Positions 3,354-9,955 of a stretch of 64,000 nt of DNA are shown here, one piece after another. Numbering within the stretch: the first letter of the stretch is position 1; each line of letters opens with the position of its first letter. Made by a program: the position numbers and the translations under genes. The notes below the pieces were generated by a model, which had not been told where the DNA came from, ran no database searches, and saw nothing but the letters and a program-made list of their open reading frames with translations. Origin of the DNA: a phage. The stretch lies in the sequence record PZ166176.1. One strand, given 5' to 3'.

Positions 3354-3383
3354 TTGACAACTAACATTATTTTATGTTAGATT
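3354..3383 (+). promoter_or_regulatory. promoter-like site (-35 TTGACA, 18-nt spacer, -10 TAGATT) with palindrome TAACAT...ATGTTA
   Basis: Same actattgacaa motif as at 2767 and 4103; lies just upstream of tRNA-Ser. Confidence 0.4.
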
Positions 3384-3391
3384 ATAAGTAT

Positions 3392-3482
3392 GGAAGGGCA
3401 AATCGACGTGGCGACGAAAACGGTCTTGAAAACCGCCGAGCTTGAAAGAGCCTTGGGAGTTCGACTCTCCCTCCTTCCGCCA
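3392..3482 (+). tRNA. tRNA-Ser (anticodon TGA), long variable arm, CCA encoded
   Basis: Acceptor GGAAGGG/TCCTTCC, anticodon loop CTTGAAA, long variable arm, T-stem GGGAG/CTCCC with loop TTCGACT, discriminator G, CCA; the D-arm is irregular. Confidence 0.7.
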
Positions 3483-3486
3483 GATT

Positions 3487-3572
3487 GGTAGATTGGTGAA
3501 ATGGTAGCCACGACAGTTTGCTAAACTGTAGTCGGAAACGGCGTGTAGGTTCGAGTCCTACATCTACCGCCA
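3487..3572 (+). tRNA. tRNA-Ser (anticodon GCT), long variable arm, CCA encoded
   Basis: Acceptor GGTAGAT/ATCTACC, D-stem GTGA/CCAC (read as in the analysis), anticodon stem ACAGT/ACTGT with loop TTGCTAA, T-stem GTAGG/CCTAC, discriminator G, CCA. Confidence 0.8.
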
Positions 3573-3578
3573 AATTAA

Positions 3579-3664
3579 GATGAGTTGGCTGAATGGTTTA
3601 AGCGGCGGACTGTTAATCCGTGTTCGAAAGAACGATATAGGTTCAAATCCTATACTCATCGCCA
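3579..3664 (+). tRNA. atypical tRNA: serine-like body (long variable arm, discriminator G) with anticodon GTT (Asn codons), CCA encoded
   Basis: Acceptor GATGAGT/ACTCATC (perfect), anticodon stem GCGGA/TCCGT with loop CTGTTAA, variable arm hairpin GTTC-GAAA-GAAC, T-stem ATAGG/CCTAT with loop TTCAAAT, discriminator G, CCA. Isotype cannot be settled by eye. Confidence 0.55.
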
Positions 3665-3671
3665 GAATTAT

Positions 3672-3750
3672 GGACTTGTAGAGTTAAGGTAAACCCCCAG
3701 TCGCCAAGAGGCTTCTGGAATTGCAGGTATCGAATCCTGCCGAGTCCCAG
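3672..3750 (+). pseudogene. degenerate tRNA-like element (no CCA, 8-nt T-loop, no clean anticodon arm)
   Basis: Acceptor GGACTTG/CGAGTCC and T-stem GCAGG/CCTGC are recognisable, but the D and anticodon arms do not fold canonically and CCA is absent. Confidence 0.3.
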
Positions 3751-4631: not shown

Positions 4632-4710
4632 AGCGGGATAGAGGAGTCTGGTCGTCCTCGCCAGTTTCATATGCTGGAGATCATCGGTTCAAATCCGATT
4701 CCCGCCTCCA
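4632..4710 (+). tRNA. tRNA with anticodon CAT and an A1:C72 mismatch (second Met/Ile2-type tRNA), CCA encoded
   Basis: Acceptor AGCGGGA/TCCCGCC, D-stem GAGG/CCTC with an 11-nt loop, anticodon stem CCAGT/GCTGG with loop TTCATAT, T-stem ATCGG/CCGAT with loop TTCAAAT, discriminator T, CCA. Confidence 0.65.
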
Positions 4711-4825
4711 AATATCGCTTGCCAGCGGTATCTTTGAAGACCTTGCCTGGTTCCTTCTAAGATGGAGGGGTGCGACTCCTTAACGCACAATTATAATAAA
4801 GCATTTCAAATTAACAGTATTTATT

Positions 4826-4848
4826 AGCCTCCTTATTGGAGGCTTTTT
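4826..4848 (+). terminator. rho-independent terminator after the tRNA cluster
   Basis: Hairpin AGCCTCC-TTATT-GGAGGCT followed by TTTT. Confidence 0.75.
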
Positions 4849-4867
4849 GCTATCTATTGAATAAAAC

Positions 4868-6212: not shown

Positions 6213-8288
6213 GTGGCAAAGAAAAAGGCAGCAGGTAGTTTAGCTGGAGTAGATATTGAAGTAAAGGCTCAACCAGGTAAACAGACTCTTGCAATGGATT
6301 TAATGCCAGAAGTTATGATTTATGGTGGTGCCGCTGGATGTGTTTCTGCTGAAACAGAATATCTTACAAAAGATGGTTGGAGACAGATTAGTGAATATTC
6401 TGGAGAGGATATTTACCAATACAATCCTAAGAATAAGCGTTTAGAATTGGTAACACCTTATTTTGTAGAATACGATTTAAATGGAGATAACCTATACAGA
6501 ATAACAAATGGTGTAGGATTGTTCCAAGAACTTAGTATGGAACACCGTTTTGTATTCTATAAGAAAAAGAAATCAAAGAAACATTTCGAGATTCTTGTAG
6601 GAGATCTTATTGCATTACAGCAAATAGGAAAACCCCTGCAAGGTTATGTAGAAAATCCATTCGGTAAACGTGTTCCTTTTAACATACCTGGTAAAAAGAG
6701 CACTTACTTAAAAATACACGAGGTTATTTCAACAGATGATAAGAAATATTGTTTTGAGACTCCAAGCAGCTATATTGTCTTTAGACGTGGCGATCACTGC
6801 TTCGTTACTGGGAATAGCGGCAAGTCTCGTCTGCTATTGCTGAAAGCTTTAAAATACGCCTACAAAGACCCTTTGTTTGGTGGAATACTTTTCCGTAAGA
6901 ACACCACTGCTCACCGTAAACCAGGTGGTCTGTTTACAGAAGCAAAACGTTTGTATCTTCCTTTACAACCGCACGTAAAAGAAAGTACAATGGATATCAT
7001 TTTTGAAGCCACTGGTGGTGGAACCCTCAAATTTGACCATTTGGAAAATGATAACGTAACAGCAGAAACAAACCATCAGGGTACACAGTATTCAATGGTA
7101 GGTTTTGACGAGTTAACCCACTTCACACAATATGAAATGCTCTATCTTCTGGGACGTATGCGTTCAGAGTCAGAAACAAGTTTCATGTTGTGCACATGTA
7201 ACCCTGACGCAGATAGTTGGGTTTTGAATTGGGTGTTACCTTATCTTGATGAGGGTGGTTATCCTAGAGAAGATATGTGTGGTAAACAAAAATATTTCAT
7301 CATTGTTAACGATGAACCTGTTTTTGCTGACACACCTGAAGAACTGAAAGAAAAATATCCAGAAAACTGTTTCATGGAAAACCCTAATACAGGGGAGACA
7401 GTTGTTATTGAACCACAAACTTTCGTATTTATTGGTGGGACAATATTTGATAACCCAGAACTCATTAGGCTTAACCCTAATTACTTAGCACAGCTTAAAT
7501 CACAAACAGCGATTAAAAGAGCACAGCTTCTGGACGGTTGTTGGTTTGCACGTATTCAGAAAGAATCTTTCTTTCAACGTGAATGGTTACATAAAATATC
7601 TTATAAAGATGTTCCTAACAATCTTAAACTAATGCGAGCATGGGATAAAGCTGTTTCAGTTCCTACAGAAACTTACCGTTATCCAGACTATACAACATCT
7701 GTCAAAATGGGTAAAGACCAAGATGGTAATATCTACATCTTTGGCGACTATGATTATGATGCTGTGGATGAGAAAAGTAAAATTTTCGGAAGGTTTCGAA
7801 GACTACCTGGGGAAAGGGATAACCTGATTCTAAATCAATGTAAGATTGATGGACCAGAAGTTACAGTAGTGCTTCCTAAAGACCCATCTGGTGCTGGGAC
7901 AATAGAATACACAGAGTCTGCAAAGAAACTTATTCTAGAAGGTTTTGTTGTTAAACCAGATGCTATGCCAGGTAACAAGAAAAAGCTTCAGCGTTTTATG
8001 CCTTTTAGTAGTGCGTGTCAAAACGGTTTTGTTTATATTGTTGAAGATTCTTTCCCTAATGTGGAAACTTTAACCCACTTTTATAAAGAATTGGAATCTT
8101 TCAATGGTGAAAGATCTACAGCCACTATTAAAGATGACATTCCCGATGCTGCTGCCTCTTGTTTTAATACTCTGTCAAAAGAGAATACTTTCAAAGCAGT
8201 AGCTATCCCTACAACAACAAATGCTCCTACAGGATACAGTAGAATGAACAGCGGATTTCACCAACCGTATAGTGTCCGTAAAAGATAA
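6213..8288 (+). CDS. terL: terminase large subunit, interrupted by an intein in the Walker A P-loop
   Basis: Walker A (GGAAG...SGKS) is split by an inserted segment; Walker B-like MVGFDELTHF; size and position upstream of the portal gene. Confidence 0.85.
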   Translation: MAKKKAAGSLAGVDIEVKAQPGKQTLAMDLMPEVMIYGGAAGCVSAETEYLTKDGWRQISEYSGEDIYQYNPKNKRLELVTPYFVEYDLNGDNLYRITNGVGLFQELSMEHRFVFYKKKKSKKHFEILVGDLIALQQIGKPLQGYVENPFGKRVPFNIPGKKSTYLKIHEVISTDDKKYCFETPSSYIVFRRGDHCFVTGNSGKSRLLLLKALKYAYKDPLFGGILFRKNTTAHRKPGGLFTEAKRLYLPLQPHVKESTMDIIFEATGGGTLKFDHLENDNVTAETNHQGTQYSMVGFDELTHFTQYEMLYLLGRMRSESETSFMLCTCNPDADSWVLNWVLPYLDEGGYPREDMCGKQKYFIIVNDEPVFADTPEELKEKYPENCFMENPNTGETVVIEPQTFVFIGGTIFDNPELIRLNPNYLAQLKSQTAIKRAQLLDGCWFARIQKESFFQREWLHKISYKDVPNNLKLMRAWDKAVSVPTETYRYPDYTTSVKMGKDQDGNIYIFGDYDYDAVDEKSKIFGRFRRLPGERDNLILNQCKIDGPEVTVVLPKDPSGAGTIEYTESAKKLILEGFVVKPDAMPGNKKKLQRFMPFSSACQNGFVYIVEDSFPNVETLTHFYKELESFNGERSTATIKDDIPDAAASCFNTLSKENTFKAVAIPTTTNAPTGYSRMNSGFHQPYSVRKR
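6339..6815 (+). mobile_element. mini-intein (about 159 aa) in the terminase P-loop
   Basis: Begins CVSAETEYLTKDGW directly after GGAAG and ends ...DHCFVTGN before SGKS; excision would restore the P-loop GGAAGSGKS. Confidence 0.6.
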
Positions 8289-8389: not shown

Positions 8390-9955
8390 GTGTCAACAGG
8401 AAAAAGAACGTACACTAAAAAGTCAGAATACTGGGACAAAGGTGCTGCAAATAAAGCTGCTCTCTCTCCAACAAAAGAGGCAGAGAAAGAGAAAACGTTA
8501 CTCCTGTCACCTGAAATAGGAACGATCGGATTAAACTCAATCAAAGCATTTACGAATTTCATGCAACCTTATGAGACTCGTTTCCCAGAATGTATTCGCA
8601 CTTTTAAAGAGATGGGTGAAGACCCTGATGTAGCTACTGCTCTTGACGCTACATATATCTTTGTAGATAGAGCATTCTTTGATTTCAAGATAAAATACAA
8701 TGTAAACTCGGCAAAGTCAAGAAAAGCTGCTAAGTTTATTGATTACATGTTGCGCAATATGCAAGCCCCTCTACGTCAATATGTTAGATCACTTTTGACA
8801 TATAAGCAATATGGTTTTGCATTCGCAGAGAAAGTTTATGAGTTGGATGAAGATCCTAAAAGTCCTTACTTTGGGTATTGGCGATTAACCAAACTGGCTT
8901 TTAGACCACAAGACACTCTTCACATGGCTCAACCTTTTACATATTCGGCAGACGGACGTTCTATTCTATCTGTTAACCAGAATATCACCAATACGATGTT
9001 AGCTCCAGGTAATACAACTTTAGAAACGGGTATTAAAGAAATCCCTTTCAGTAAAGTTTTATTTGTTGGTAGCAACATTACAGAGAATAATCCACTAGGA
9101 GTTAGTCCGCTTTTAGCTGTATATCGTAGCTGGCGTGAAAAATCTCTTATTCAGGAATTTGAGGTTATTGGGGTATCTAAAGATTTAGGCGGTATGCCAG
9201 TTCTTAAGGTTCCAAGTGACATTCTAAACAGGGCATCTTTAGATCCTGCTGGGGATGAAGCACAATCTCTTCGAGTTCTCCAAGCCAACATCGCTAACCT
9301 ACACTCTGGTGAACAAGCCTACATGGTATTGCCTTCAGACGTTTATGAAGGCACAGTGATGCGTCAATACGATCTTGTATTCCAAGGTGTTGATGGCACG
9401 GGTAAACAGTTTGACACTCAAGCACTAATCAAACAACGCAAGCTAGATATTTATAACCGCTTTGGTGCGGGTGTGTTGATTATGGGTGATGGTGATGCAG
9501 GAAGTTTTGCGCTTTCTGACAACAAACAAACACTATTGTCTCATTTTATTGAGCGAGATGTAGATATTGTTGTAGAAGCTATAAACTCTCAACTGATCCC
9601 TCAAACACTACGACTAAACAATATCTTCCTTTCTGATGAAGATATGCCTAAGTTTGTCAGTGGTGAAATGGGTGATCCTGATATTGAAGTAAATGCTAAA
9701 GCTATTCAGCAGTTGGTAGCCTCTGGTGCAATACCTTTAACCCCAGAAGTTATTAACGAGTTCCTTGAAAAAATTGGTTTTGAATATCGCATCCCTGATG
9801 ATATTGTTGCCAATAAAGAGAAATTCTTTGAATTCATGGATAACTATATGCCTGACAAAACTTCACGATCAGGAGATGGTTTAGCTACAGCGGGAACTGG
9901 AACGTCTGATACTGTTTCTGCTCTAGATCCTTCAGCACAAAACCTGTCGAATTAA
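8390..9955 (+). CDS. portal protein (521 aa)
   Basis: GTG start after GGAGG; size and position directly after the large terminase; called by synteny. Confidence 0.7.
   Translation: MSTGKRTYTKKSEYWDKGAANKAALSPTKEAEKEKTLLLSPEIGTIGLNSIKAFTNFMQPYETRFPECIRTFKEMGEDPDVATALDATYIFVDRAFFDFKIKYNVNSAKSRKAAKFIDYMLRNMQAPLRQYVRSLLTYKQYGFAFAEKVYELDEDPKSPYFGYWRLTKLAFRPQDTLHMAQPFTYSADGRSILSVNQNITNTMLAPGNTTLETGIKEIPFSKVLFVGSNITENNPLGVSPLLAVYRSWREKSLIQEFEVIGVSKDLGGMPVLKVPSDILNRASLDPAGDEAQSLRVLQANIANLHSGEQAYMVLPSDVYEGTVMRQYDLVFQGVDGTGKQFDTQALIKQRKLDIYNRFGAGVLIMGDGDAGSFALSDNKQTLLSHFIERDVDIVVEAINSQLIPQTLRLNNIFLSDEDMPKFVSGEMGDPDIEVNAKAIQQLVASGAIPLTPEVINEFLEKIGFEYRIPDDIVANKEKFFEFMDNYMPDKTSRSGDGLATAGTGTSDTVSALDPSAQNLSN

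Follow-up and report, generated by a model that had tools for sequence, protein, structure and literature searches.

A tRNA-Asn(GUU) gene with a long variable arm

The window considered here is a 64,000-nucleotide stretch of phage DNA (sequence record PZ166176.1), and its positions 3579-3664 on the plus strand hold a tRNA gene that combines the asparagine anticodon GUU with a long, type-II-like variable arm. The gene spans 86 nucleotides (nt), including an encoded CCA end, and is returned as tRNA-Asn (gtt) by ARAGORN, an isotype check that a preliminary description of this DNA, made from the letters alone, had proposed. It belongs to the tRNA family of Rfam (RF00005), which it matches with 62 bits (gathering score 29, E = 2.3e-12), and in this alignment the surplus nucleotides fall in the variable region and the anticodon loop is CUGUUAA. 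The minimum-energy fold obtained with RNAfold is a five-armed cloverleaf, the acceptor/T branch is of the 7/5 type, and GenBank records of phAPEC8-like relatives label the gene tRNA-Asn.

The acceptor stem (GAUGAGU/ACUCAUC, 3579-3585 with 3654-3660; all parts of the gene lie on the plus strand) is Watson-Crick paired at all seven positions, beginning with G1-C72, A2-U71 and U3-A70, and is followed by U8 and G9. The D arm (3588-3603) contains three base pairs (bp), G10-C25, C11-G24 and U12-A23, with G13.A22 left unpaired, so that the core, including the upstream G9, is type-II-like. The anticodon arm (GCGGA-CUGUUAA-UCCGU, 3605-3621) presents GUU at 3612-3614 and leads directly into a variable arm of 15 nt (3622-3636), in which GUUC (3622-3625) pairs with GAAC (3630-3633) around the GNRA loop GAAA (3626-3629), leaving a 3' tail of three unpaired nucleotides (GAU, 3634-3636). 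The T arm (AUAGG-UUCAAAU-CCUAU, 3637-3653), read from the sequence and from Rfam, the discriminator G73 (3661) and the encoded CCA (3662-3664) complete the molecule. The cloverleaf, perfect acceptor stem, CCA, G73 and GTTC-GAAA-GAAC arm of the preliminary description are borne out by the sequence, ARAGORN, Rfam and RNAfold, and the seven-nucleotide loop CTGTTAA with its anticodon GTT stands in the same register in ARAGORN, Infernal and RNAfold. No other register, which had been named beforehand as grounds for doubt, was found with any of these three concordant tools. The locus is a real phage tRNA gene with an asparagine anticodon and a long extra arm.

Positions 25-43, which include the whole anticodon stem-loop, are an exact 19-nt match to E. 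coli asnT; this gene was compared directly, and a BLAST search of the phage tRNA against 5,426 E. coli genomes gave only a spurious 34-nt match in yobD. With asnT the phage tRNA shares the anticodon GUU, the loop CUGUUAA, the identical anticodon stem, G73 and the 7/5 branch, and its wider family also shares U1-A72 and the preferences at 2-71 and 3-70. Unlike asnT, a type-I tRNA, it has a 15-nt hairpin instead of 5 nt in the variable region, G9 instead of A9 and G1-C72 instead of U1-A72, and its D stem has 3 bp and G13.A22, where that of asnT has 4 bp and C13-G22. It thereby falls outside the canonical type-I tRNA-Asn, whose variable loop has 4-5 nt and whose D stem has 4 bp, C13-G22 included, and also departs from the U1-A72 of bacterial tRNA-Asn.

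The preliminary description had taken the body of the molecule to be of the serine type, offering an unusual asparagine tRNA only as a fallback. The E. coli serine determinants of the acceptor and D stems, which we take to be G1-C72, G2-C71, A3-U70, C11-G24 and G73, are represented in part: G1-C72, C11-G24 and G73 are present, and A2-U71 and U3-A70 replace G2-C71 and A3-U70. Of these elements, A3-U70 and C11-G24 are reportedly the serine determinants of a study by Normanly from 1992. Among 114 tRNA-Ser genes sampled from the same loci, G1-C72 occurs in 93, G2-C71 in 98 and A3-U70 in 91, and none has U1-A72. In close homologues of the phage tRNA the 2-71 pair varies between A-U, G-C and U-A, and 3-70 is never A-U. 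The arm, too, is tyrosine-like and not serine-like in its geometry. Its 4-bp stem and 3-nt unpaired 3' tail resemble the arms of the sampled tRNA-Tyr (a stem of 3-4 bp with 0-1 nt on the 5' side and 3 nt on the 3' side), whereas those of the sampled tRNA-Ser have stems of 4-7 bp and mostly a 1-nt 3' tail. G73 does not discriminate, since it is common to tRNA-Asn. Set beside bacterial tRNA-Ser as a whole, the molecule is alike in its long arm, G73, G1-C72, C11-G24, G9 and a 13-22 pair that is not Watson-Crick, and unlike in its anticodon, its second and third acceptor pairs and its shorter arm with the longer tail. With bacterial tRNA-Tyr it shares the arm geometry and an anticodon loop that differs by one base, and a tRNA-Tyr gene is its neighbour in relatives; unlike tRNA-Tyr, for which A73 and GUA with U35 and A36 are expected, it has G73 and GUU, and the acceptor stems of its family are not Tyr-like.

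Published identity rules point in the same direction. E. coli asparaginyl-tRNA synthetase (AsnRS) requires only G34, U35, U36 and G73 (PMC9976931, citing Li et al. 1993), and because all four are present the tRNA is most likely charged with asparagine. Leucyl- and tyrosyl-tRNA synthetase (LeuRS and TyrRS) would be blocked by G73, which is an antideterminant for both (PMC9976931). Seryl-tRNA synthetase (SerRS) ignores the anticodon, uses the variable arm and G73 as its main elements and recognizes the tertiary shape that the arm sets, and bacterial tRNA-Ser conserves both G1-C72 and G2-C71 (PMC9976931); lacking G2-C71 and A3-U70 and having a short, Tyr-like arm, the phage tRNA is therefore expected to be disfavoured by this enzyme. 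The codons of the phage agree with an asparagine reading. When the terminase gene at 6213-8288 was aligned with 97 homologues, each at most 55% identical, the conserved columns at AAC or AAU (AAY) codons held asparagine in 8 of 14 cases and serine in none, and among all residues aligned to these codons asparagine came first (36%), with serine outside the six commonest.

Some features of this copy weigh against the asparagine assignment. It has G1-C72 and not U1-A72, and it carries three of the five serine determinants as well as the long arm. In a naive-Bayes score of the body, computed position by position without the anticodon and the arm and therefore crude and indicative only, serine leads with 8.1 bits, ahead of cysteine (6.2) and asparagine (-1.4); this is weak evidence, and nearly all of the lead (7.5 bits) is contributed by the acceptor stem and discriminator. 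U1-A72 is an amidotransferase determinant and is dispensable where AsnRS charges the tRNA directly, as in E. coli. With the asnT-identical anticodon stem-loop, the Asn-like acceptor stems and G73 of the family and the AAY codons aligned to asparagine, we consider it probable that the tRNA decodes AAC and AAU as asparagine, with some serylation still conceivable. The serine-type body is thus given up as the leading description, and the former fallback is preferred.

A widespread class of long-arm tRNA(GUU) genes

A scan of 2.9 million viral contigs for an asparagine anticodon arm followed by GGTTC 17-24 nt further on found the long-arm pattern in at least 120 contigs. Among the matches listed, at least 99 long tRNA(GUU) genes, with at least 74 distinct sequences that differ strongly in their acceptor and D arms, were confirmed by ARAGORN. 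A neutral scan for the anticodon arm alone gave about 12 long forms among about 110-120 viral loci, roughly one in ten. When the long-arm pattern was sought in 185,579 bacterial and archaeal genomes, one per species, 60 stretches were found, of which 17 were confirmed as long tRNA-Asn; 12 of these 17 lie inside arrays of 7-36 tRNA genes per 8 kb, and such density is a signature of phage-derived or mobile arrays. The class is thus frequent among viral contigs and close to absent in cellular genomes. In actinomycete chromosomes (Verrucosispora and Micromonospora; loci L239, L240, L249 and L286), 23-36 tRNA genes per 8 kb include a long-arm tRNA-Asn of 89-90 nt, and these arrays look mobile or phage-derived.

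In cultured phages the window tRNA matches 747 records, 226 of them over at least 80% of its length. These belong to Phapecoctavirus and to rV5-like, T5-like and T4-like phages of Escherichia, Salmonella, Klebsiella, Enterobacter and other hosts, and almost all are labelled tRNA-Asn. Long arms capped by a GNRA loop are also found occasionally in viral contigs on tRNAs of other isotypes, namely Thr(UGU) (5 of 60), Cys (7 of 52), Glu (4 of 62) and Trp (3 of 57), and on Ile, Gly, Met and Pro tRNAs; example loci are L297 (14220-14306, the tRNA-Thr of phage Bas33), L015, L096, L051, L053, L054, L078, L081, L017 and L058.

The arm is maintained across this diversity. In an alignment of 24 sequences 91% of the cells are paired, and the observed covariation was reached in none of 500 shuffles: all four pairs of the variable stem and all seven acceptor pairs change on both sides, and the T arm is paired in 100% of cells. 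A GNRA tetraloop caps 43 of 84 arms, compared with 0.7 expected from shuffles, and stems of at least 4 bp occur in 46 of 84, compared with 14.7 expected. Selection is very probably acting on the variable arm, as judged from these sequence patterns.

Family statistics from 94 long and 105 short tRNA-Asn, 114 tRNA-Ser and 70 tRNA-Tyr reveal a chimeric make-up. The long tRNA-Asn carry U1-A72 in 52 and G73 in 81 of 94 cases, and their 2-71 and 3-70 pairs are distributed as in short tRNA-Asn; the sampled Tyr and Leu tRNAs carry A73, and tRNA-Tyr has G1-C72 in 58 of 70. The core differs from that of the short form, with G.A at 13-22 in 43 of 94 long tRNAs versus C-G in 76 of 105 short ones, and G9 in 38 of 94 versus A9 in 93 of 105. 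The body score places asparagine on top for 59 of the 94. The class therefore joins an Asn-like acceptor stem and discriminator to a type-II-like core, and its members are best read as asparagine tRNAs that appear to have been rebuilt on a type-II scaffold.

Genomic setting and origin

The tRNA cluster of the window is 98-99% identical to that of phAPEC8-like Escherichia myophages (Phapecoctavirus, Stephanstirmvirinae), and the tRNA-Asn(GUU) gene itself is 96-100% conserved across Phapecoctavirus genomes. Directly upstream, 6 nt away, lies a tRNA-Ser(GCU) gene (3487-3572). In phAPEC8 and Mt1B1_P17 the two genes are separated by a tRNA-Tyr(GUA) gene and a spacer of about 130 nt, and this segment is missing at window positions 3572-3579 (compared with L002 2174-2390 and L001 2174-2397). 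The genes thus lie 6 nt apart because the window has lost the Tyr(GUA) gene and spacer, and their adjacency is, from this comparison, the product of a deletion. The tRNA-Tyr gene differs between phAPEC8 and Mt1B1_P17 and is flagged as pseudo in one of them.

This bears on the origin of the gene, which the preliminary description had sought in a neighbouring tRNA-Ser, duplicated and then altered in its anticodon, a proposal to be checked by alignment. Ser(GCU) is only 71% identical to the tRNA-Asn over its full length and stands no nearer to it than unrelated tRNAs do: in 59 loci the co-resident tRNA that matches best, whatever its isotype, reaches 55-74% identity, and its isotype is scattered (Tyr 12, Lys 10, Leu 8, others), so that no donor stands out. 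The anticodon arms of the two genes are, moreover, unrelated. With identity at background level, unrelated anticodon arms and an adjacency made by deletion, the duplication is rejected, and the sequences indicate that the molecule is not a mutated serine tRNA with a new anticodon.

The same description had counted two bona fide tRNA-Ser genes upstream. Ser(GCU) holds as the only upstream serine gene called by the tools. The other, a 91-nt tRNA-like gene at 3392-3482 (plus strand) with the serine anticodon UGA, a long variable arm, a 7/5 branch and an aberrant D arm, does not hold in the same way: it is missed by ARAGORN, and its best Rfam match, tRNA-Sec, reaches 37.4 bits, below the gathering score of 47. 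By eye its D arm is tRNA-Sec-like, with a 6-bp stem containing an A.A mismatch and a 3-nt loop; RNAfold gives only 3 bp around a 4-nt loop. Both phAPEC8 and Mt1B1_P17 carry the element unchanged.

A consensus scan (10 of 12 matches) places a promoter-like site, TTGACA, 18 nt and TG-TAGATT, at 3354-3383 on the plus strand, and the sub-cluster that follows it comprises the Ser(UGA)-like gene, Ser(GCU), tRNA-Asn, a tRNA-like element and tRNA-Thr, with a terminator-like hairpin at 4826-4844, 3' of the last tRNA. The two signals fit co-transcription of the sub-cluster. The tRNA-like element, directly 3' of the tRNA-Asn at 3672-3750 (plus strand), was recognized by alignment and fold as a homologue of the T5 RNA annotated as "rna3, putative tRNA-like RNA"; the alignment of this element with its counterparts from T5 (L295 13878-13950, minus strand) and Bas33 (L297, about 9082-9180) has 55 invariant columns. 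This association of a tRNA-Asn, of either type, with an rna3-like RNA has been kept in two phage families. Further downstream, a tRNA with the anticodon CAU (4632-4710, plus strand) shows a mismatch at the first pair of its acceptor stem, and its D loop is long; it is called tRNA-Met by ARAGORN and could be Ile2-type or initiator-like, and its counterpart in GenBank relatives is flagged "tRNA-Pseudo-CAT". A sub-threshold RyhB match at 4797-4851 (plus strand; 29.4 bits against a gathering score of 55) overlaps the terminator-like hairpin and is probably due to chance.

Possible roles of the variable arm

Host tRNA-Asn is a target of antiphage nucleases. AriB of the PARIS system cuts E. coli tRNA-Asn(GUU) between positions 40 and 41 (PMC12409363), and P2 OLD cuts paired CNG motifs in the anticodon stem, with E. 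coli tRNA-Asn among the tRNAs assayed for cleavage kinetics (PMC12445682). The phage tRNA-Asn(GUU) is thus a phage-encoded isoacceptor of a host tRNA cut by a defence nuclease, and in this it resembles the resistant replacement tRNAs of other phages, the T5 tRNA-Lys, tRNA-Thr and tRNA-Asn in the case of AriB and phage tRNA-Thr(UGU) in that of P2 OLD. Unlike the known resistant phage tRNAs, which carry substitutions in the anticodon arm and D loop, it has none near the cleavage site, its anticodon arm being identical to that of asnT, and differs from the host tRNA in the core and variable arm. Any resistance would consequently have to come from the core and the variable arm, and these emerge directly beside the 3' strand of the anticodon stem. 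The extra arm may therefore alter the shape of the tRNA core near this strand, such that host factors directed at tRNAs, above all anticodon-stem nucleases such as AriB or P2 OLD, would no longer accept the molecule, while synthetase and ribosome still would, and the phage would keep a supply of tRNA-Asn once that of the host is destroyed. That the arm serves nuclease evasion is a tentative proposal, which we regard as possible but short of probable. Taking the evidence as a whole, the explanation that we lean towards, with modest confidence, is a working asparagine tRNA on a type-II scaffold whose arm may hide it from host nucleases.

Phages of the BASEL collection offer a comparison. The T5-like phage Bas33 (HildyBeyeler) encodes an 86-nt tRNA-Asn homologous to that of the window and an 87-nt tRNA-Thr(UGU) (L297 14220-14306) in which the D arm is the same and the variable arm bears a GUAA cap. 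This tRNA-Thr strongly rescues phages from OLD (2026 preprint), and for PARIS the T5 tRNA-Lys alone rescues Bas33, whereas T7 also needs tRNA-Thr (Belukhina et al.); neither source discusses the variable arm. The Bas33 data would thus lend indirect support, in that non-canonical long arms seem functional and compatible with escape from a nuclease. T5 itself encodes, at the same locus, a type-I tRNA-Asn of 78 nt whose anticodon stem is divergent, in a similar tRNA cluster and beside the same kind of rna3-like RNA. In T5-like phages this one locus has two alleles, the short tRNA-Asn in 134 records and the long one in 48, and their co-circulation resembles two alternative solutions to one pressure, as far as can be judged from the sequences. 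The published rescue of PARIS toxicity by T5 tRNA-Asn was considered as direct functional evidence for the long-arm form and rejected, the T5 molecule being of type I. Near the T5 tRNA region, T5.081 (L295 21618-22052) is a small protein annotated as "tRNA amidotransferase".

Several observations speak against a role in nuclease evasion. The asnT-identical anticodon arm keeps both the AriB site (U36AAUC|C41) and a paired CNG motif. Published resistance is due to substitutions in the anticodon arm, and type-I phage tRNAs (T4 tRNA-Thr, T5 tRNA-Asn) also rescue, so that a long arm is not needed for rescue. Bas34 (SelmaRatti) encodes its own tRNA-Asn and yet needs that of T5 for rescue from PARIS; this phage is absent from all 48 records with the Bas33-type allele and from the 60 of the 134 T5-type records that were listed. 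A small share of Cys, Glu and Trp tRNAs likewise has long arms, and these tRNAs are not known to be targeted by nucleases.

The most serious alternative, though an unlikely one, is an ordinary supplementary asparagine tRNA that adds decoding capacity for the AAY-rich genes of the phage and whose arm is a historical accident, kept because the core has come to depend on it. It could have arisen from a type-II tRNA such as tRNA-Tyr by changes from GUA to GUU and from A73 to G73, and the arm geometry (stem of 3-4 bp, 3' tail of 3 nt), the tRNA-Tyr directly upstream in relatives, the single base between the Tyr and Asn anticodon loops, the type-II core features G9 and G13.A22 that travel with the arm and the share of AAT and AAC (about 6% of codons in a window of 39% GC) are all compatible with such a route. 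The acceptor stems of the family are, however, Asn-like with U1-A72 and not Tyr-like, no consistent donor isotype appears within the loci, and both the strong enrichment in viruses and mobile arrays and the alternation of short and long forms at one locus look like ongoing selection. Extra supply would also be a weak motive, E. coli having four tRNA-Asn genes. That the gene is instead a decaying pseudogene or a chance tRNA-like fold has next to no probability. In GenBank records tRNAscan marks some of its cluster neighbours as pseudo, but its 62 bits against RF00005, its perfect stems, its conservation in Phapecoctavirus and the compensatory changes in distant homologues contradict decay, and covariation effectively refutes it.

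Charging by SerRS through the long arm and G73, so that AAC and AAU would be read partly as serine by deliberate mistranslation or a dual Ser/Asn identity, is very improbable. Long arms with an anticodon other than Ser, Leu or Tyr have precedents in the V-arm tRNAs of nematodes, reportedly described by Hamashima in 2012 and 2016, and in the allo-tRNAs (Mukai 2017, PMC5389517). These molecules, some of them from phages and metagenomes, have Leu-type bodies or 8/4 or 9/3 branches and are charged by the body, with Ser, Ala or Leu; here the branch is 7/5 and, in the family, what identity elements there are beyond the arm favour the amino acid of the anticodon. An enzyme that is blind to the anticodon and relies mainly on arm and G73 (PMC9976931), the G1-C72, C11-G24 and G73 of this copy and its crude body score, which ranks serine first, would suit serylation. 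It is opposed by the absence of G2-C71 and A3-U70, which are also unconstrained in homologues, by the short arm with its Tyr-like tail, by an anticodon arm that is exactly the host asparagine arm read by AsnRS, by the U1-A72 majority of the family, a pair seen in 0 of 114 tRNA-Ser, and by AAY codons that fall at conserved asparagine and never at conserved serine positions. It is improbable as well that the molecule acts mainly outside translation, for example as a decoy or competitive inhibitor that titrates a host factor with affinity for tRNA (a nuclease or modification enzyme, for instance). Inhibition of AriB by competition from overexpressed viral tRNAs has been raised as a possibility (PMC12409363), a host-identical anticodon arm would make good bait, and an unexplained tRNA-like RNA always follows the gene; the perfect acceptor stem, CCA, G73 and canonical T- and D-loop elements are, however, those of a translating tRNA, and phage tRNA-Thr supplemented the pool rather than inhibiting OLD.

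If the favoured explanation, in which the arm hides a working tRNA-Asn from nucleases, is correct, it might extend beyond asparagine. Conversion of type-I into type-II tRNAs would then be a general, unrecognized counter-defence of phages, in which a short GNRA-capped arm and a matching D-stem core are grafted onto tRNAs that their synthetases recognize by anticodon and discriminator alone (chiefly Asn, also Thr(UGU) and others); anticodon-stem nucleases such as AriB or P2 OLD could not dock, decoding would stay intact, and the anticodon arm would need no mutation. This generalization is doubtful, if conceivable.

The existence of the gene is already known, as it is routinely annotated; a long-arm tRNA-Asn class was not found described. 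Reviews assign a long variable arm only to Ser, Leu, bacterial Tyr and Sec tRNAs (PMC7609411, PMC9976931), a literature search found no description of a long-arm tRNA-Asn or of a long-arm phage tRNA outside Ser, Leu and Tyr, and the variable arm is never discussed in the PARIS, OLD and eLife papers on phage tRNAs. The class, whose members come largely from viruses and mobile tRNA arrays, breaks this rule, and hundreds of genomes of coliphages and of Salmonella and Klebsiella phages carry the long-arm gene under the simple label "tRNA-Asn", which calls for caution in the annotation and isotype scoring of phage tRNAs. If AsnRS charges these molecules, a class IIb synthetase tolerates a type-II tRNA, with consequences for identity rules and for orthogonal tRNA design. 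Should the arm block defences that cleave tRNAs, it would help to explain published results with BASEL phages that carry unremarked long-arm tRNAs, and phages would have a second, structure-based escape route besides substitutions in the anticodon arm.

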